This document shows positions 18,099 to 59,690 of a stretch of DNA of 64,000 nt, one piece after another. The notes beneath the pieces were generated by a model. It made no database searches. It saw only the letters and a list, made by a program, of their open reading frames with translations, and had not been told where the DNA came from. Every line of letters starts with the position of its first letter. Positions within the stretch are counted from its first letter, which is position 1. The stretch is from Candidatus Saccharimonadota bacterium (lineage in GTDB: Bacteria; Patescibacteriota; Saccharimonadia; CAILAD01; BJGX01): positions 5,557 to 69,556 of the forward strand of contig DAOLHK010000002.1 of assembly GCA_035329105.1 (NCBI GenBank), read 5' to 3'. The translations under genes were made by a program, and so were the position numbers.

Positions 18099-20525
18099 CT
18101 AATTCTGTTGTTTGACGACGAAGTTTACAAGTCTTCCGGGTACTACAATCGTTTTTAATACTTCTAGATCTTTGGTGTAATTATTCTGGGTATTGAGTTC
18201 TATAGCTTTTTTCTCTAATATTTCTTTACTTGTGCCAGACTCTATGACAAATTCGCCACGTAATTTACCATTCACCTGTATCACAATAGTTTCTACATCA
18301 TCTTTTATAAGCTGTGGGTCGTATTTGGGCCAAGACTGGATGTGAACACTCTCCGTATTGCCTTGGTATTCCCATAGTTCTTCGCATAGATGAGGAGCAA
18401 ATGGCGCAAGAATTGTAGTAAACACTATCATCATATCTTGCCAAGCTCGTTTTGAAACAACTCCATCTTGCTTGAGTTTTCCCGCATAATTCACAAATTC
18501 CATCATTGCAGATATAGCAGTGTTGAATTTTACGTCTTTTAAATCTTCACTTACTTTTTTGATAAGTTTGTGCAATCTACTCTGTAGTTCTGCTTCTAGA
18601 ATAGAATCTACATCAACTTCTTGATATTCAATTGTGACCATATCCCATACCTTACCAATAAATCGATATGTTCCTTCAAATCTACCACTGTCCCAAGGAC
18701 CACCCTCTTCGTATGGACCCATGAACATCAAATATAGACGCAGCGCATCCGAACCATATTTATCTACGTACTCAGCCGGATCTATGACATTGCCCTTGGA
18801 CTTGCTCATCTTATTGCCATCAGGTCCTAATATCAGACCCTGATTGATTAGTTGTGTAAATGGTTCGGTAAAGTCGACAAGTTTTTGTTCATGCAAGAAT
18901 TTGGTAATAAATCGAGAATACAAAAGATGCAAAATAGCATGCTCTACTCCACCCATATACCTATTTACCGGAAGCCAAGTCTTAACTGCCTCGGGATCAA
19001 ATGCAGCCTTATCATAATTTACATTTGGATAGCGTAAATAATACCAGCTACTGTCTACAAAAGTATCCATAGTATCAGTCTCGCGTTTGGCATCAGCACG
19101 ACATTCTGGGCATGTTGTATGCAAGAATTCCTCATTAGTAAGCAATGGACTTCTTCCAGATTCGTCCATCTTTTGATTAAGTGGCAATAGTACCGGCAAA
19201 TCAGACTCAGGTACAGGCACTGTGCCACACTTATCACAATAGATAATAGGAATAGGTGCGCCCCAGTAACGTTGGCGTGATATTAGCCAGTCACGCAATC
19301 GGTAGTTGGTAACTTTTTGAGCTAAGCCTTTTTTTGAGAGGTCGTTCACTATTTTTTCTTTGGCAGTTTCTATATCTAAACCGTTGTAGTCTTGAGAATT
19401 TACTATCTTTCCTTCGCCGGTAAATGGGGATTCGGATACATCACCGCCACTGATAACTTCTACGATATTTAGTTTGAATTTTTTGGCAAAGGCATAGTCT
19501 CTATCATCATGCGCGGGAACTGCCATTATAGCTCCAGTACCGTAGCCCATGAGTACATAATCAGCCACCCAAATAGGTATCTTCTCATCATTGACAGGAT
19601 TGATGGCATACGAGCCTGTGAATACTCCTGTCTTATCTGCTTGGGACATACGGTCTATATCGGTCATTTTGCTAGCGCTATCTTTGTATTGCTGCACTTC
19701 TTCTTGCTGGTCTTTGGTAGTAATCTTTGTGACCAATGGATGCTCTGGCGCCATCACCATAAATGTCGCACCGAAGAGAGTATCAGCGCGAGTGGTGAAT
19801 ACTTCTAGTGTGTCTTTGTGGCCGTCAATACCGAATTGTATACTTGCTCCTTTACTTTTTCCTATCCAATTGCGCTGTTGCTGCTTGACTTGCTCTGGCC
19901 AGTCAAGCGAGTCCAGATCATTTAGCAAGGCATCGGCATAGTCAGTAATAGTAAAAAACCATTGCTTGAGTAGCTTGCGCTCTACTGTAGCGCCGCTACG
20001 ATCAGCCTTGCCATTTATCACTTGCTCATTGGCTAGTACAGTCTTGTCTACAGGGTCCCAATTGACAAAAGCTTCTTTTTGCACAGCTTTACCAGCCTTA
20101 AATAATTGCAAGAAAAGCCACTGTGTCCATTTATAATACTCAGGCTTTGAGGTATCTAGGTCTTTTTCCATATCATACATACCGCCGAGTCGTAAATATT
20201 GACGACGAAATGCTGCAACATTTTGAGCGGTCCATTCGTCGGCTGGTATTTTGCGCTTGATAGCTGCATTCTCAGCAGGCAATCCAAAGGCGTCATAACC
20301 TAGTGGCTGCAACACATCATATCCTTGCATACGAGCAAATCTACCAAGAGTATCTGCGGGTGCGAAATTGTACCAATGGCCTACATGGAGATCTCCGGAT
20401 GGATAAGGAAACATCACTAGGTTATAAAAAGGCTTTTTTGGATCCTCTGGAGTTTTGTATATTTTACTTTCTTCCCATATAGCTTGCCATTTGGGTTCTA
20501 TTTCTTTTGGATTGTATTTATTCAT
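18099..20525 (-). CDS. leuS: leucyl-tRNA synthetase
   Basis: Canonical LeuS N-terminus FYNLVMFPYPSGDLHVGHWYNFAPADTLGRFARMQGYDVLQPLGYDAFGLPAENAA, and the KMSKS motif. 808 aa. Confidence 0.95.
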   Translation of the reverse strand: MNKYNPKEIEPKWQAIWEESKIYKTPEDPKKPFYNLVMFPYPSGDLHVGHWYNFAPADTLGRFARMQGYDVLQPLGYDAFGLPAENAAIKRKIPADEWTAQNVAAFRRQYLRLGGMYDMEKDLDTSKPEYYKWTQWLFLQLFKAGKAVQKEAFVNWDPVDKTVLANEQVINGKADRSGATVERKLLKQWFFTITDYADALLNDLDSLDWPEQVKQQQRNWIGKSKGASIQFGIDGHKDTLEVFTTRADTLFGATFMVMAPEHPLVTKITTKDQQEEVQQYKDSASKMTDIDRMSQADKTGVFTGSYAINPVNDEKIPIWVADYVLMGYGTGAIMAVPAHDDRDYAFAKKFKLNIVEVISGGDVSESPFTGEGKIVNSQDYNGLDIETAKEKIVNDLSKKGLAQKVTNYRLRDWLISRQRYWGAPIPIIYCDKCGTVPVPESDLPVLLPLNQKMDESGRSPLLTNEEFLHTTCPECRADAKRETDTMDTFVDSSWYYLRYPNVNYDKAAFDPEAVKTWLPVNRYMGGVEHAILHLLYSRFITKFLHEQKLVDFTEPFTQLINQGLILGPDGNKMSKSKGNVIDPAEYVDKYGSDALRLYLMFMGPYEEGGPWDSGRFEGTYRFIGKVWDMVTIEYQEVDVDSILEAELQSRLHKLIKKVSEDLKDVKFNTAISAMMEFVNYAGKLKQDGVVSKRAWQDMMIVFTTILAPFAPHLCEELWEYQGNTESVHIQSWPKYDPQLIKDDVETIVIQVNGKLRGEFVIESGTSKEILEKKAIELNTQNNYTKDLEVLKTIVVPGRLVNFVVKQQN

Positions 20526-20580
20526 ATCTATATTGTACCGATTTTTTGTGATTATTCATATTGTATTGGGTCCGAGCGCG

Positions 20581-20618
20581 CCCCGGACTACAGCGATGTG
20601 CGGCGCTGTAGTCCGGGG
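20581..20618 (-). promoter_or_regulatory. perfect 15-bp GC-rich hairpin (ccccggactacagcg-N8-cgctgtagtccgggg) in the leuS 5' leader
   Basis: The perfect palindrome is visible in the sequence. It lies about 55 nt upstream of the leuS ATG and has no following U-run. Confidence 0.5.
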
Positions 20619-20694
20619 CAGTGCCCGCAAGGGAACTTGATAGATAAAAGTCTTGGGATCGCCTCAACTCTTATCTAGCTTCTTTGTCTACACC

Positions 20695-20859
20695 TCAGGC
20701 GTAAGGGATGGCGCCGTCGGGATGAGACGAAGAGGGGTAAGTCGAAGGGACCGGCTTGTCACCACCAACCTTCGAGGTGACAGTGCCTGCTTGATCAATC
20801 ATCACCGTGATGACTGGCTCGGCATCCGGGTAGACATCTTTTACTTGGTCTTGGGCCAT
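20695..20859 (-). CDS. small GC-rich ORF (54 aa) with a consensus AGGAGG Shine-Dalgarno
   Basis: Minus strand reads aagcAGGAGGcaccATGgcc. Product: MAQDQVKDVYPDAEPVITVMIDQAGTVTSKVGGDKPVPSTYPSSSHPDGAIPYA. Confidence 0.35.
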   Translation of the reverse strand: MAQDQVKDVYPDAEPVITVMIDQAGTVTSKVGGDKPVPSTYPSSSHPDGAIPYA

Positions 20860-20950
20860 GGTGCCTCCTGCTTGGTTCCGGATGTTGTGGTACGGATTGT
20901 TCCCCATTTCGGCCTTATACTCTTGTAGGAGTTCAAGACCGATTTCGGAC

Positions 20951-20979
20951 AACAAAAAACCGCCGATTGATTTCGACGG
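20951..20979 (-). terminator. rho-independent terminator (minus strand) ending the upstream transcript
   Basis: Minus-strand RNA: ccgucga-aaucaa-ucggcgg followed by uuuuuuguug. Confidence 0.5.
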
Positions 20980-21108
20980 TTGAGTTTACGTATATTGGTT
21001 ATTTTAACGTAGCGAAATCCCAACCGTCTTCGGCAATAGTAGTACGAGCAGGTTGAGGATGTTTCGTTTCATAGTGTTAATCTACACTTGTTGTATATAC
21101 TTGTCAAA

Positions 21109-22056
21109 TTATTTCCATTGCCAGTGATCTAAAATAGTATCTGTTGTGGTTTTTACATATCTACCGTTTTCATTTCTATTACCATATCCAGATACTATCA
21201 ACTCAAAACCATTTACCTGCACTCCATTTATTACATAAGGGTTATCTATGTATATATGCAACACTTTTGATGTCTCGGGAAAGCTCGGATTCCTGCGAAC
21301 TAAGAATATTGCTTGCTTGCCACCTAAGCTGAAATTGGGGTTATTGGTGACTATTTGCTCTCCTAATTGTTGGCTGCTCGCAATCTGATTATTTGCAACA
21401 TCTTGAGCCGTTACATTAAATCTAGAACCCAAGACCAGTGGATTGATAGACATTGATCCAACCCCAGAAGATCCTACATTGTTTGCTGATTCTTCATAAG
21501 TTTTTCTTTGGAGACAATTATTCGGTGCGCCACCTACTTGGAAAACACTTGGTGTAGTCTGTACGCCCCTTGGGAAGAAAGTCTTGAAGCATTCAGATTC
21601 TACTTTGACGAATCCACTAGGTCTGTTATTGGGAGGATTGTTTGGTTGCTGTCCTGTGGGTAGATCCGTGGGATCATCTGGTGGCAAAGGGACGTCAGTT
21701 GAACTATTGCCTTTCAAACATATCCATTGAGTACCTGCAGCTTGTTTTCTAGTAGATTCTTTTTTGAGTATCCATTCCTTGCCGGTAGATGCACAAGCAG
21801 GCCTATTGGTGTCTCTTACCAATGCCTTTAGAGGTGCTCTCTGAGTGCCTTCGACTCGAGTGGCAAAACAATTGCCTTGATTACAATACAGTGTTTTCTC
21901 TACAGGCTGGTCACCTACGGCAGCATTGCTATAGAGCACTACTCCGATTCCTATCAGTGCTATCAGGGCTACTCCCAGAGCTATCTTACGCTTAGTGAAG
22001 AAACTACTTTTCTTATTTAGACTAGATTTGCTTTTTGAGGTTCGTTTTTTGGCCAT
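21109..22056 (-). CDS. hypothetical secreted or membrane-anchored protein
   Basis: 315 aa. Basic N-terminus plus one TM segment (IALGVALIALIGIGVVLY), and a Cys-, Asn- and Pro-rich ectodomain. Confidence 0.5.
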   Translation of the reverse strand: MAKKRTSKSKSSLNKKSSFFTKRKIALGVALIALIGIGVVLYSNAAVGDQPVEKTLYCNQGNCFATRVEGTQRAPLKALVRDTNRPACASTGKEWILKKESTRKQAAGTQWICLKGNSSTDVPLPPDDPTDLPTGQQPNNPPNNRPSGFVKVESECFKTFFPRGVQTTPSVFQVGGAPNNCLQRKTYEESANNVGSSGVGSMSINPLVLGSRFNVTAQDVANNQIASSQQLGEQIVTNNPNFSLGGKQAIFLVRRNPSFPETSKVLHIYIDNPYVINGVQVNGFELIVSGYGNRNENGRYVKTTTDTILDHWQWK

Positions 22057-22117
22057 GAATTTTGTAGTACTCTATGATTAGTAATTTGTTTTTATAATAA
22101 TACTTAAGCTTTGATGA

Positions 22118-22155
22118 GTCAAATAAAATAAACCCGATAACTATATTGCTATCGG
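22118..22155 (-). terminator. rho-independent terminator (minus strand)
   Basis: Minus strand: cccgata-gcaatatagt-tatcggg followed by tttattttattt. Confidence 0.5.
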
Positions 22156-22160
22156 GCTTC

Positions 22161-22340
22161 TTAGTCGGACTCATACTGCTCATCAGGCCTAAAGATCATG
22201 GCGTGCTTGGCTCTAGTTAATTCATCTCGAGATAGTGGCTTTCCATCTGATGATTCTGGTCTCAATCTCAGGCGATTGAGCTGCAAGAAAAAAGCAAATG
22301 CCGATGGATGACCGGTACTGGGGCGCGGTGCATCACTCAT
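22161..22340 (-). CDS. small ORF (59 aa) translationally coupled to the upstream gene through an ATGA overlap
   Basis: Product MSDAPRPSTGHPSAFAFFLQLNRLRLRPESSDGKPLSRDELTRAKHAMIFRPDEQYESD. Absent from the track because it is under 60 aa. Confidence 0.35.
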   Translation of the reverse strand: MSDAPRPSTGHPSAFAFFLQLNRLRLRPESSDGKPLSRDELTRAKHAMIFRPDEQYESD

Positions 22341-22620
22341 GATTTACTATCTCCCTCTGGTCGCATTCGGATAGTTACATCCAATCTCACTGTCTGGGTG
22401 CTCTGCTCTACATCTTTTGGTTCTTCTTCAGAAGCCCATTTCCTTGCTAGTTCTGCCAGCGACTCAGCAGCTTCTGCGAAAGCCAAAAGCTCTGCGCGCT
22501 TGTCTGGGTCCTTTGGTAGCCCTACGACTACTTGATATTGCCCAGACACTGATCCAGGATCGGTTCCGTTTGCTGCTACGCAACGGCTGGGGTTATCGGG
22601 AGTCGGTGTTTTCTTCACCA
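22337..22620 (-). CDS. hypothetical small protein (first gene of a two-gene module)
   Basis: Start taken at the ATG at 22620 (MVKKTPTPDN...); the track start at 22648 is a TTG. Sits in a moderately GC-rich patch. Confidence 0.4.
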
Positions 22621-22705
22621 TGATGTTGTCCTGTCTTGTTTTGTCCAAGGTGCGATTGTTTGACTTTTCGATCCACTATACTAGTCAATGGATCGATTTA
22701 GTAAA

Positions 22706-22736
22706 ACAAAAAACTGCCGATTGTGCGGCAGTTTTA
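22706..22736 (-). terminator. rho-independent terminator for the murF/C39 operon (bidirectional shape)
   Basis: aaaaaa-ctgccg-attgtg-cggcag-tttt. Confidence 0.5.
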
Positions 22737-22847
22737 TTATATTATCTATAGACTAAATCTACCGCGTAATACCTCGGTCTATAATGATAATGTTGTTATG
22801 AGCTGATAAGTTCATAGGCAATAGTATGGCAAATCGATAGTAATTTG

Positions 22848-23522
22848 TCAATCTGCTTGTTGTGTGGGCAATGCAAATATGGCGGTGTTGTTGAAGAATC
22901 GAAAGAATTTTTCGATTTCTATTTTATTTTGACGTGAATTCTGCTCATTACTGAGCATTGGATCACTAATGTAAAAATACTCTCCGCTTTGATCTTTGAT
23001 ATAGCCATTGACTACTACTTGGTGAAAGTCACCATCTGATTTGAATCCAGTTCTCACACTTGCTATTACCGCTGATTTTTTGCGAAATATCTCTATAAAA
23101 TCCCGAATAACTAAATCGATCTTATTGGTGCTATTCTTTTCAAATTCCAGTTGCGCATTGAACTGTTCGATCTGAACTTTGTCATATCCTTCATTGTCTT
23201 CTAACCACTTCACATCATTCTGTGTAAGATTCCAATTCCTGCGCCAGCTAATATAGCCTAGAAGTTTGAGATACTCGACTTGCTTACTGTGTATCCAATT
23301 GCCACTTTCGTTTTGACCATTTCTTGCAAGTAACCAGTCTCTTATCTCTGATAACTTGATGGTATTATCACTTTTGGGTGGCAAGTAATCTATCAACATC
23401 TTCATACAAGCAATTGCGCAAATTTCCTTACCTATCTTGAGTGGCAATTCGTTTTCTGGGTCGAGCTGCCAGACATGATTGATATCGATGTATAAATCTA
23501 TGTTGTTTTCTTGACTGCTCAT
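22848..23522 (-). CDS. putative papain-like (C39/BtrH-like) cysteine peptidase
   Basis: 224 aa. Cys within KEICAIACMKMLIDY and a downstream His in GDFHQVVVNGY are arranged like a Cys-His peptidase. ATGA overlap with murF. Confidence 0.4.
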   Translation of the reverse strand: MSSQENNIDLYIDINHVWQLDPENELPLKIGKEICAIACMKMLIDYLPPKSDNTIKLSEIRDWLLARNGQNESGNWIHSKQVEYLKLLGYISWRRNWNLTQNDVKWLEDNEGYDKVQIEQFNAQLEFEKNSTNKIDLVIRDFIEIFRKKSAVIASVRTGFKSDGDFHQVVVNGYIKDQSGEYFYISDPMLSNEQNSRQNKIEIEKFFRFFNNTAIFALPTQQAD

Positions 23523-58716: not shown

Positions 58717-58791
58717 GGTCCCATCGTCTAGTGGTTAGGACACCAGGTTTTCATCCTGGCAACAGGGGTTCGACTCCCCTTGGGATCACCA
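58717..58791 (+). tRNA. tRNA-Glu (anticodon TTC), CCA encoded
   Basis: Folds by hand. Acceptor GGTCCCA/TGGGATC. Anticodon loop TTTTCAT. T-loop TTCGACT. Confidence 0.9.
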
Positions 58792-58811: not shown

Positions 58812-58888
58812 GGCCCCGTCGTCTAGTGGCCTAGGACATCAGGTTCTCATCCTGAAGATCGCGGGTTCGAATCCCGCCGGGGTCACCA
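58812..58888 (+). tRNA. tRNA-Glu (anticodon CTC), CCA encoded
   Basis: Acceptor GGCCCCG/CGGGGTC. Anticodon loop TTCTCAT. T-loop TTCGAAT. Confidence 0.85.
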
Positions 58889-59005
58889 ATAGGATTTATT
58901 GTTTCACATAGTTATGTCAATAACTATTGATTATTTGTTACAATTGTGCTATTATATAGCCCTTGGTCGCAACCGCGACCTTGTACCCGAATAGAAAGAG
59001 CAATC

Positions 59006-59581
59006 ATGGACCTCAAGAAAGTCCACGGCGTGAACGTCCTCCGGATGTTCATGGACTGGTTCGAAGATGAGTTTTACGAAGAGTTCTACCAGCGCTTCCC
59101 CGACAAGGGGATGACGCTCGTCGTACTCGACTCGGACAACCTCATCGATCTCCAGCAGAACTGGCGCCACCCACAGGGCTTCGAGATGATCGTCGCCCAC
59201 ATCGGCGATGAGGCGATCGCCATCGCCGCGAACGGCACCTACGAGAACGTGAAGGGCAAGTTGCGCTTCGTGCTCCGCACCGGCATGGACTCGGTGATGG
59301 CCGAGACTCGGCAGGACTTCGTGCGACCGGGCGATTTCCCGTGGGAAGGTGCTGGCGAGCACGAGGGCTACATCGGTGGTGTCTCCGGACTCGCCAAGGA
59401 AGAAGACTGGGAGATGTACTGCAAGTGCGTCGACAAGCTCATCGAGCTGCTCAAGAAGGTCATCTCCAGGGCGATGGAGCGAAGCAACCAGCTGCGCAAG
59501 CTCCCCGACTGCCCCCACGGAGCCAAGTACATGTACGCCATCGATGTGTCGGATATGTTCCCCGACTACTCCGCCGCCTGA
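59006..59581 (+). CDS. hypothetical protein encoded by a strongly GC-rich (about 60%) foreign gene
   Basis: 191 aa starting at ATG 59006 (MDLKKVHGVNVLRMFMDWFEDEF...). Third-position G/C codon bias throughout. An intrinsic terminator follows immediately. Confidence 0.6.
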   Translation: MDLKKVHGVNVLRMFMDWFEDEFYEEFYQRFPDKGMTLVVLDSDNLIDLQQNWRHPQGFEMIVAHIGDEAIAIAANGTYENVKGKLRFVLRTGMDSVMAETRQDFVRPGDFPWEGAGEHEGYIGGVSGLAKEEDWEMYCKCVDKLIELLKKVISRAMERSNQLRKLPDCPHGAKYMYAIDVSDMFPDYSAA

Positions 59582-59601
59582 TCCTCGATCCACTGGGCCT
59601 C

Positions 59602-59647
59602 GAGCCCCGACTAGAGTCCCCGACTCTGGTCGGGGCTCTTTTCGTTT
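59602..59647 (+). terminator. rho-independent terminator
   Basis: gagccccgac-N17-gtcggggctc followed by ttttcgttt. Confidence 0.7.
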
Positions 59648-59690
59648 ATCACTATTATATATATGCACATTATTTTGCTAAAATAGTCCT

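Follow-up and report, generated by a model that had tools for sequence, protein, structure and literature searches.

The spacer upstream of leuS in a Saccharimonadota bacterium: a probable leucine attenuator, a conserved small-protein gene and conserved RNA structures

Classical attenuators, including one with a leaderless, Leu-rich leader peptide, have been described upstream of leuS in Streptomyces (PMC1262725; PMC8079986). Here, we analyze the spacer upstream of leuS in a metagenome-assembled genome of a Candidatus Saccharimonadota bacterium (Saccharibacteria, TM7); the spacer lies on the minus strand of a stretch of 64,000 nucleotides, hereafter called the window (assembly GCA_035329105.1, contig DAOLHK010000002.1, positions 5,557 to 69,556), and compare it with the described systems. 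On balance, we lean towards regarding the whole spacer as one regulated transcription unit placed before leuS, which comprises a Leu attenuator, a conserved small gene and conserved RNA structures. The attenuator is a known type of device, and the embedded small gene and the 3′ RNA motif are new. The leader open reading frame (ORF) is rich in the cognate codon, as is leuL2 of Streptomyces leuS (MRAVRLLLSEPR, leaderless), and the leaderless start is as in S. lividans. The synthetase attenuators of Streptomyces leuS and E. coli pheST also share with this locus the mutually exclusive antiterminator and terminator helices, a terminator with a U-tract and a cognate synthetase gene downstream. However, the present locus belongs to the Patescibacteria/Saccharibacteria phylum and shows no sequence similarity to these systems; its Leu run is longer (5–7 Leu), a conserved gene and about 400 nt of structured RNA stand between the terminator and the synthetase gene, and the synthetase gene is preceded by its own promoter-like box. 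The leu operon leader (RF00512) and the Lactococcus leu/phe leader (RF01743) follow the same logic of Leu-codon-dependent attenuation; they regulate biosynthetic operons, and their covariance models gave no match here at E ≤ 10. Saccharibacteria are not known to have such biosynthetic operons. T-box riboswitches likewise lie upstream of aminoacyl-tRNA synthetase genes and sense tRNA charging; they bind the tRNA directly, whereas sensing here would proceed via the translating ribosome. A T-box was rejected for this leader, as there was no Rfam match at the gathering threshold or at E ≤ 10 and no T-box sequence was seen on reading the leader. A literature search on leuS attenuation in Patescibacteria found nothing.

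The comparison set was composed of leuS loci from genomes and contigs encoding homologues of the leucyl-tRNA synthetase (LeuRS) or of the small ORF, and its members are cited below by numbers with the prefix L. The attenuator was analyzed in 14 Saccharibacteria sequences with LeuRS identities of 63–100%, and about 30 leuS loci of other phyla served as controls. The same LeuRS and locus are found, identical, in GCA_035329305.1 and many further assemblies. First, a sigma-70-type promoter stands directly after the stop codon of the upstream gene (Table 1), where TTGACA-17-TAGATT gives 10 of 12 consensus matches in a promoter scan. All relatives carry TTGACA-17/18-TAnnnT, with a variable spacer sequence and 6–10 nt to the leader ATG. 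A leaderless transcript is implied, since the ATG of the mini-ORF lies 7 nt past the −10 box. The leader ORF contains seven Leu codons in total, six of them inside eight consecutive codons. This LNLLxLLL run (5–7 Leu) is kept in the 14 sequences via synonymous CTN/TTR swaps, and all six Leu codons are used; thus, the leader Leu residues are selected as codons and not as RNA sequence. All examined Saccharibacteria relatives with an intergenic leader have a Leu-rich leader ORF before leuS, and such a mini-ORF is absent at the control loci of other phyla, apart from one chance case within a gene.

The leader RNA has three competing folds, in which region 2 pairs with region 1 or with the terminator's 5′ arm, or the terminator itself forms. 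The 1:2 helix, which joins CGAAACAUCCUCAACC with GGUUGGGAUUUCG, appears in the minimum free energy (MFE) folds of most lineages. The terminator stem (20958–20981; nine pairs and a 6 nt loop, followed by TTTTTTG) was found again with compensating changes in the 14 sequences. A first-pass annotation, made from the letters of the window, had placed a terminator at 20951–20979 and taken it to end the upstream transcript; the element is real, and it is the terminator of the attenuator instead. The same annotation had offered a leader peptide or attenuator for leuS as one explanation of the region. The attenuator part of this proposal stands, with the difference that the leader peptide is the 22-codon mini-ORF and not the 54-aa ORF. 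For the antiterminator helix, GACGGUUGGG/CUCAACCGUC, we calculated −17.5 kcal/mol (z = −6.0), and none of 300 shuffles was as good. The helix is predicted in 14/14 sequences, and in 10/14 it is equalled by 0/300 shuffles (z −4.5 to −7.3); for L162 the count is 6/300 (z −2.5). The attenuator helices were scored sequence by sequence because MAFFT misaligned the terminators of L162, L167 and L168. The antiterminator strand covaries with the terminator arm, as seen in the pairs GACGGUUG/CAACCGUC, GGCGGUU/AACCGCC, GCAGACGGUU/AACCGUCUGC and AGGCGGUUAGGG/CCCUAAACCGCCU. Region 2 stops 14 nt short of the end of the leader stop codon in the window (6–15 nt across the lineages), so a ribosome at the stop codon would cover region 2 and the terminator would form. 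The leader therefore shows the sequence features of a classical attenuator: a leader ORF rich in the cognate codon, a terminator with a U-tract, an exclusive antiterminator, and an upstream sequestering segment together with the stop placement. Comparison supports both the alternative helices and the Leu codons, and we read the leader ORF and terminator, with good confidence, as a classical Leu-codon attenuator.

The small ORF lies between the attenuator and leuS in 11 lineages (the window, L161, L162, L165, L025, L167, L168, L169, L170, L171 and L166), and a Shine–Dalgarno (SD) sequence and a start codon are found in each. In the window, AGGAGG stands 4 nt before the ATG of the 54-codon ORF, in agreement with the first reading of the sequence. 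That reading had left room for a plain structured untranslated region (UTR); comparison of the leuS upstream regions of relatives shows that both the ORF and its SD sequence are conserved, so the region is not a plain structured UTR. The frame of the ORF is the sole one of six that is open throughout (ten lineages checked). Over the final eight sense codons, which encode PDGx(L/I)PYA, the variable positions in ten lineages comprise eight third, four first and three second codon positions, and TGA, TAA and TAG all occur as the stop codon. This third-position variation and the use of all three stop codons point to selection on the small protein. Length differences between the window and L003/L005 are in-frame. 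Profile searches recovered 13 clusters in a collection of 5.8 billion proteins and 17 representatives at E ≤ 1e-3 among 1.84 billion; the family has at least 20 clusters, all of 45–77 aa, without annotation and never within a larger protein. An exact look-up of the 86-aa extended ORF returned no record.

The family shares the motif PQAESA(V/I), and QAESA always lies 28–29 residues from the C-terminus by hand count. The C-terminal end is (Y/F/H/M)PDGx(L/I/V)PYA. Conservation is concentrated in the C-terminal 29–33 residues, and the N-terminal part is variable, with 15 to 47 residues. In the subfamily of the window, a 14–15-residue insertion interrupts the first motif, another subfamily has an extra conserved N-terminal DWDLNS motif, and the small ORF of L025 runs 11 codons beyond the C-terminal motif. 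The hydrophilic product has a high content of Pro, Ser, Thr and Gly, which extends the earlier description of a hydrophilic, Pro/Ser-rich peptide, and Leu makes up 3.9% of the family residues versus 9.2% in the large ORFs of the window. Searches of Pfam, NCBIfam and PDB gave no significant profile match for the small protein. Taken together, the 54-aa ORF is very probably a true protein-coding gene, the product of which is likely disordered.

Conserved RNA structures flank the small gene on both sides. In the 5′ UTR, the stem of the P1 hairpin is kept in other lineages with differing sequences and G–U pairs. A long-range helix, GGGGAAC/GUUCCCU, encloses the ORF in the MFE folds of L161, L162 and L171. 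Its counterpart in L167 and L168 is GCCCGCA/UGCGGGC, present in whole-module folds, and that in L169 is an 11 bp helix, AGGUAAACAAA/UUUGUUUACCU, read by eye from the sequence. Unconstrained RNAduplex pairing of the 5′ UTR with the 3′ UTR did not outperform shuffles, since the program allows large internal loops; as RNAduplex is uninformative here, the long-range helix rests on the whole-module folds and on the differing sequences at the same place. It is plausible that this helix closes the small mRNA on itself, and the evidence is suggestive. On the 3′ side, hairpin 2 keeps its 12 nt loop with a differing stem in L161, L162, L165 and L171 (five lineages with the window) and is absent from L025, L167, L168, L166, L169 and L170. 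The loop, which in L162 is AAGGUGAUCCCA, is nearly complementary to the 3′ tail of 16S rRNA. The same loop is also a 7–8 nt complement of region 2 of the attenuator (UUGGGAU).

Downstream of hairpin 2, the invariant block is identical from position 2 (UUCCCUUGCGGGCAC) in nine lineages with LeuRS identities of 66–100%; it is missing in L169 and L170, where the long hairpin and the ORF are kept. The long hairpin had been reported as a perfect 15 bp stem at 20581–20618; the stem is present and is one pair longer. It was also thought to be very unusual for this genome, and indeed no other perfect hairpin in the 64 kb is as long; the runner-up has 11 pairs, and 30 Markov-simulated 64 kb sequences peak at 9–12 pairs. 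All 11 lineages have 13–16 pairs at this place, with at least seven stem sequences; 12 of the 16 pairs are changed on both sides, and 98.8% of the cells are paired. In the controls, slid positions gave 32–46% paired cells and 0/500 shuffles matched. The hairpin is a structure of the leuS-sense RNA, since its G–U pairs fit that strand only. It is not a canonical terminator, because a U-tract is lacking in 10/11 lineages; in L169, a U5 is located 6 nt after the stem. The leuS ATG follows 54 nt beyond the hairpin, close to the 55 nt first estimated. The GCUCG of the conserved 3′ flank can pair with the CGGGC of the block, which lengthens the helix in the fold to about 22 bp, interrupted by a small internal loop. 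These CGGGC/GCUCG pairs are invariant, so covariation neither backs nor contradicts them. A covariance model of the block, hairpin and flank (R1, from alignment A5) matched exactly once in each locus, with no match in the rest of the window, in L007–L009 or in the control loci.

The 3′ element resembles RNase III hairpins, 3′ stabilizer stem-loops and 3′-UTR small RNAs in having a long near-perfect helix at the end of a cistron, next to a conserved single-stranded stretch and without a U-tract. However, two helical turns are usual for RNase III, a length that the perfect stem of 13–16 bp reaches only with the CGGGC/GCUCG pairs added. Searches for described RNAs were empty for this region, as the first inspection by eye had suggested. 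At the gathering threshold, Rfam gave tRNAs and chance matches only on the whole window; Rfam 15 at E ≤ 10 on 20300–22900 gave only sub-threshold chance matches to the terminator, with the 5′ UTR, block and hairpin unmatched; and ARAGORN found no transfer-messenger RNA.

Several observations concern the block sequence itself. A metagenome scan with an 18-mer of the block returned 39 loci and no true homologue; ten of these loci are the antisense of a 16S rRNA V6 hairpin (GUGCCCGCAAGGGAAC). The block is the exact antisense of the V6 hairpin GGCAGUGCCCGCAAGGGAA in several non-TM7 bacteria (L053, L055, L070–L072, L078, L080, L082, L085 and L090). Judged by TM7 signature sequences, the ten V6 loci come from non-TM7 bacteria, and we treat the match as a coincidence.

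Table 1. Features of the leuS upstream region, in window coordinates.
Feature	Position	Strand	Details
Spacer	between the stop of the 315-aa ORF (21109) and the leuS ATG (20525)	−	583 bp
Sigma-70-type promoter	21079..21107	−	TTGACA 21102–21107, 17 nt spacer, TAGATT 21079–21084
Leader peptide ORF MKRNILNLLVLLLPKTVGISLR	21004..21072	−	22 codons + stop
Region 1 CGAAACAUCCUCAACC	21051..21066	−	within the leader ORF; anti-antiterminator partner of region 2 (MFE folds)
Region 2 AGACGGUUGGGAUUUCG	21013..21029	−	alternative partners: region 1 or region 3
Region 3/4, intrinsic terminator of the attenuator	20952..20984	−	U-tract 20952–20957; region 3 (20973–20984) common to terminator and antiterminator
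P1 hairpin, 5′ UTR of the small gene, UCGGUCUU...AAGGCCGA	20909..20942	−	from folds
GGGGAAC strand	20899..20905	−	possible partners GUUGUCC (20947–20953) or GUUCCCU of the invariant block
SD sequence AGGAGG	20864..20869	−	4 nt ahead of the ATG
Small protein gene, MAQDQ...HPDGAIPYA	20695..20859	−	54 codons + stop
Hairpin 2	20640..20678	−	conserved 12 nt loop GAGGCGAUCCCA, 20654–20665
Invariant block GUUCCCUUGCGGGCACU	20620..20636	−	17 nt
Long hairpin, loop CCGCACAU	20580..20619	−	16 perfect pairs, 8 nt loop
GCGCUCG 3′ flank	20573..20579	−	conserved
TACAAT + leuS ATG	20523..20537	−	TACAAT 20532–20537, 6 nt, ATG 20523–20525; no SD
leuS, leucyl-tRNA synthetase	18099..20525	−	808 aa

We propose the following course of events for the unit. 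The strong promoter would give a leaderless RNA, the first 22 codons of which are rich in Leu. When leucine is plentiful, charged tRNA-Leu would be abundant, and the ribosome would proceed to the leader stop codon and cover region 2; the terminator would then form and transcription would end. When leucine is scarce, the ribosome would stall on the Leu codons and cover region 1, so that region 2 could pair with the 5′ arm of the terminator and the polymerase would continue. The read-through RNA would carry the P1 5′ UTR, the SD-led gene for the Leu-poor, disordered small protein and the structured 3′ element, and the helix between the two UTRs may close this small mRNA on itself. The 3′ element, comprising the block, the 13–16 bp hairpin and GCGCUCG, may act as a structure that forms, processes or stabilizes the RNA end. 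As no U-tract follows the hairpin, transcription probably continues in part into leuS, which also has a −10-like box for a leaderless start. The response to leucine, the passage of transcripts into leuS and the function of the 3′ element are putative, deduced from the arrangement of the sequence elements. Most likely, the unit is induced by leucine limitation, and it may add to leuS transcription.

The arrangement in relatives bears on how the unit relates to leuS. The unit lies upstream of leuS and is co-oriented in all lineages. In L007–L009, the attenuator stands immediately before leuS, with no small ORF and no long hairpin. Their post-terminator sequence (CGCCCUCGGCUU) is similar to the P1 5′ arm of L167 (CGCCUUCGGCUU), a weak hint that the module was lost in L007–L009 rather than gained in the lineage of the window. 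The term insert, used when the region was first described, is accurate only relative to L007–L009, which are distant relatives. In L166 (2083–2934) and L170 (880–1017), a prephenate-dehydratase gene of opposite orientation is located between the unit and leuS, and its stop codon lies just beyond GCGCUCG, the 3′ flank of the long hairpin. Despite this intervening convergent gene, both lineages retain the attenuator, the ORF motifs and the hairpin, which argues for a function of the unit on its own and favors a trans-acting small protein over a purely cis-acting leader.

Several points weigh against the proposed unit. The transcript ends, the Leu dependence and the read-through are all features that we infer from the sequence. 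In L007–L009, the antiterminator is no better than shuffles (27–32/300 as good; z about −1.3). The leuS gene has its own −10-like box at a leaderless distance and no SD sequence, so it could conceivably be expressed solely by itself, and an internal AUG without an SD sequence on the read-through RNA might be translated poorly. The 7 bp helices between the 5′ and 3′ UTRs are singly within chance, and the 11 bp helix of L169, which exceeds chance, is missing from the L169 fold. The lack of a U-tract makes the effect of the long hairpin on transcription ambiguous, and a plain stabilizer role does not explain the extreme invariance of the block. Finally, the small protein has no homologue of known function in Pfam, NCBIfam or PDB and no predicted fold (AlphaFold with two alignments: pLDDT, the predicted local distance difference test, 58 and 66; pTM, the predicted template modeling score, 0.22–0.23).

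The most serious alternative, which we consider unlikely though worth weighing, is that the attenuator governs the small gene only. The long hairpin would then end the transcript, leuS would be transcribed solely from a proximal leaderless promoter, and the adjacency would reflect inherited synteny. This explanation starts from the box before leuS: TA(C/A/G)AAT stands 6–8 nt ahead of the leuS ATG in ten lineages (the window, L161, L162, L166–L168, L171 and L007–L009) and 19 nt upstream in L169, where an SD sequence follows. The sequence thus suggests TACAAT as a candidate proximal promoter for a leaderless leuS mRNA; as the promoter scan did not pick it up, we infer its promoter role. Most lineages have no SD sequence before leuS, and the box of L025 and L165 precedes the start of an upstream ORF (uORF). 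The 66 nt that L166 leuS has as its only upstream region, after a divergent gene, and the U5 past the hairpin and the leuS SD sequence in L169 also fit this explanation. However, the attenuator of L007–L009 has leuS alone downstream, the real terminators of these genomes have the U-tract that the long hairpin lacks in all lineages other than L169, and a precedent exists for leuS attenuators.

In L025 (3897–4003) and L165 (3397–3503), the ATG after the TACAAT box opens a 34-codon uORF and not leuS. The stop codon of this uORF overlaps the true leuS start (TAATG), which has the SD sequence GAGGTGA, and the 5′ end of leuS appears to be duplicated in these loci.

A doubtful possibility is that the small ORF is a second cis-acting leader, encoding an arrest or sensor peptide that gates read-through into leuS, its processing or its translation. 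The last ~30 residues (QAESA...PDGxLPYA-stop) would act in the exit tunnel, and the ribosome would remodel the RNA of the block and hairpin. The conservation pattern, with the C-terminal 29–33 residues followed immediately by the stop codon, is compatible with an arrest peptide, as is the fixed spacing from QAESA to the end beside an N-terminal part of such variable length. TnaC, SpeFL and SecM-type peptides likewise have about 30 conserved C-terminal residues, a stop codon directly after them, a variable N-terminus and a leader location. The absence of a predicted fold, the fact that the family is never a domain of a larger protein, and the constant position of the ORF in cis with the conserved RNA, with the stop codon of L167/L168 only 13–17 nt before the block, point in the same direction. 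However, the family shows no sequence similarity to TnaC, SpeFL or SecM, and the conserved N-terminal DWDLNS motif, confined to one subfamily, would sit outside the tunnel. In L166 and L170, the unit has no co-directional gene to regulate downstream, yet the peptide motifs are kept. In addition, the gap from the stop codon to the block in the window is about 60 nt and holds an extra hairpin, and the L025 ORF continues past the motif.

Slightly more doubtful still is a two-stage, ribosome-read control of leuS, in which the attenuator comes first and the small ORF follows as a nascent-peptide sensor. The ~30 C-terminal residues would stall or time the terminating ribosome, and the block would switch among the 5′-UTR strand, a local CCC/GGG hairpin and GCUCG; this switch would set processing or read-through into leuS. 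In a variant, the block and hairpin would be released as a small RNA with an invariant seed.

No better placed than the two-stage control is the explanation that the RNA is the functional core and the ORF is secondary, with the block and hairpin serving as the seed of a 3′-UTR-derived small RNA or as the operator of an RNA-binding protein. Candidate binders would be RNase III, LeuRS or a ribosomal protein. Nine lineages with LeuRS identities of only 66–82% share an identical block, and its conserved single-stranded stretch beside a stem-loop resembles the usual layout of small RNAs. The CGGGC/GCUCG pairs extend the helix to about 22 bp with a small internal loop, which is the size of RNase III substrates, and the rnc gene is in the same locus. 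However, L169 and L170 keep the ORF and the long hairpin without the block, the ORF is clearly under selection at the protein level, and the hairpin has no U-tail. A search of the 64 kb window for targets complementary to the block found none at up to three mismatches, and the 8–9 nt matches were unremarkable.

The remaining explanations had been raised by the first-pass annotation, which considered a small acquired gene such as a toxin or a precursor of a ribosomally synthesized and post-translationally modified peptide (RiPP), or the terminal structure of a mobile insertion. It is very improbable that the small ORF encodes the precursor of a bacteriocin or RiPP and that the C39-like peptidase nearby processes its product. 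A Peptidase_C39_2 gene does lie upstream in the same locus, and the peptide of the window contains VGG; however, the peptidase is equally present in L007–L009, where the ORF is absent, and GG is not conserved (AVGR or AVHT in other members), and there is no conserved cleavage motif. Moreover, the locus has no transporter or modification enzyme, and conservation at the extreme C-terminus and in QAESA is unlike a leader/core arrangement. A type I toxin was rejected, as the protein is hydrophilic and an antisense promoter/terminator search gave a match at chance level only.

Least probable of all is that the GC-rich segment is recent foreign DNA or an element like a miniature inverted-repeat transposable element (MITE), with the hairpin as its terminal structure. 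The spacer, estimated at about 580 bp at first sight, is indeed GC-rich (up to 0.59 in 20552–20923 versus the window mean of 0.40), and the module is absent in L007–L009; however, it is present in a single copy in the 64 kb and once per related locus, it occupies the same site in 11 lineages with a sequence divergence that parallels that of leuS, the small ORF of L168 has 41% GC, and no terminal repeats or target duplication were seen. The hairpin has no repeat copies elsewhere in the window, the region gave only a 28 nt chance match in blastn against plasmids and phages, and a viral scan with a 15-mer gave chance matches only. A MITE or small mobile insertion is thus largely refuted by the single copy, the same site and the presence of chance matches only in phage, plasmid, viral and metagenome collections. 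Nor does an acquired gene agree with the data, as the module is syntenic and vertically conserved where LeuRS is only 66–82% identical. The high GC reflects the RNA helices and a coding sequence rich in Pro, Gly, Ala and Ser, rather than a recent foreign origin.

Saccharibacteria and other Patescibacteria have tiny genomes, do not synthesize amino acids and live on host bacteria, and to our knowledge almost nothing is known about their gene regulation. Under our preferred reading, one regulated unit before leuS, the locus indicates that textbook ribosome-mediated attenuation, from a leaderless RNA, reads the leucine supply in Saccharibacteria. With the Leu attenuator, the flow of nutrients from the host would have a concrete sensor that can be tested. 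The first product of the attenuator would be a small protein that is conserved, lacks annotation and ends in a strict motif, together with an RNA motif that is in no database; a role as a starvation effector or as a new regulatory device is conceivable for either. If the two-stage control were true, ultrasmall episymbiotic bacteria would have a regulatory device of a new class, built from peptide plus RNA. The protein family and covariance model R1 can be used at once for annotating Saccharibacteria genomes.

The leuS region also shows variation that is separate from the regulation of the unit. L003 and L005, which are independent assemblies, are mosaics with a switch point at window positions 20573–20640. 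Over the 513 nt that run from promoter to invariant block, both match L161 with 100% identity, and their leuS DNA is 100% identical to that of the window (2427 nt); leuS of L161 is 75% identical. The mosaic may have arisen either by recombination or by assembly switching at the ~70 nt identical block plus hairpin. LeuRS of many related Saccharibacteria (for example P0011 and P0018; L162, L166, L168 and L169) has 947–1087 aa and includes a NUDIX domain; in the window, NUDIX is a separate gene, three genes downstream of leuS.

The neighbors of the unit are genes for a Mur ligase and the C39-like peptidase, small ORFs of unknown function, leuS and yceD. Directly upstream, the gene at 21109–22056 (−) encodes a predicted membrane or secreted protein, the size of which depends on the lineage (315 aa in the window, 426 aa in L003/L005, 388 aa in L161 and 285 aa in L162). 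L025, L167, L168 and L007–L009 lack this gene, which resembles a variable cassette. Further upstream of the unit, at 22161–22648 (−), overlapping ORFs of 103 and 59 aa have a GC content of about 52%. This pair is kept in relatives (95–122 aa and 51–59 aa) with the motif AELA(R/E)KWAxEE and has no family match. Lastly, a 714 nt island at 58946–59672 (+) has 67% GC in the 40% GC window. It holds a 211-aa ORF with no Pfam match above the cut-off, adjoins the tRNA-Glu genes at 58717–58791 and 58812–58888, and resembles foreign DNA.

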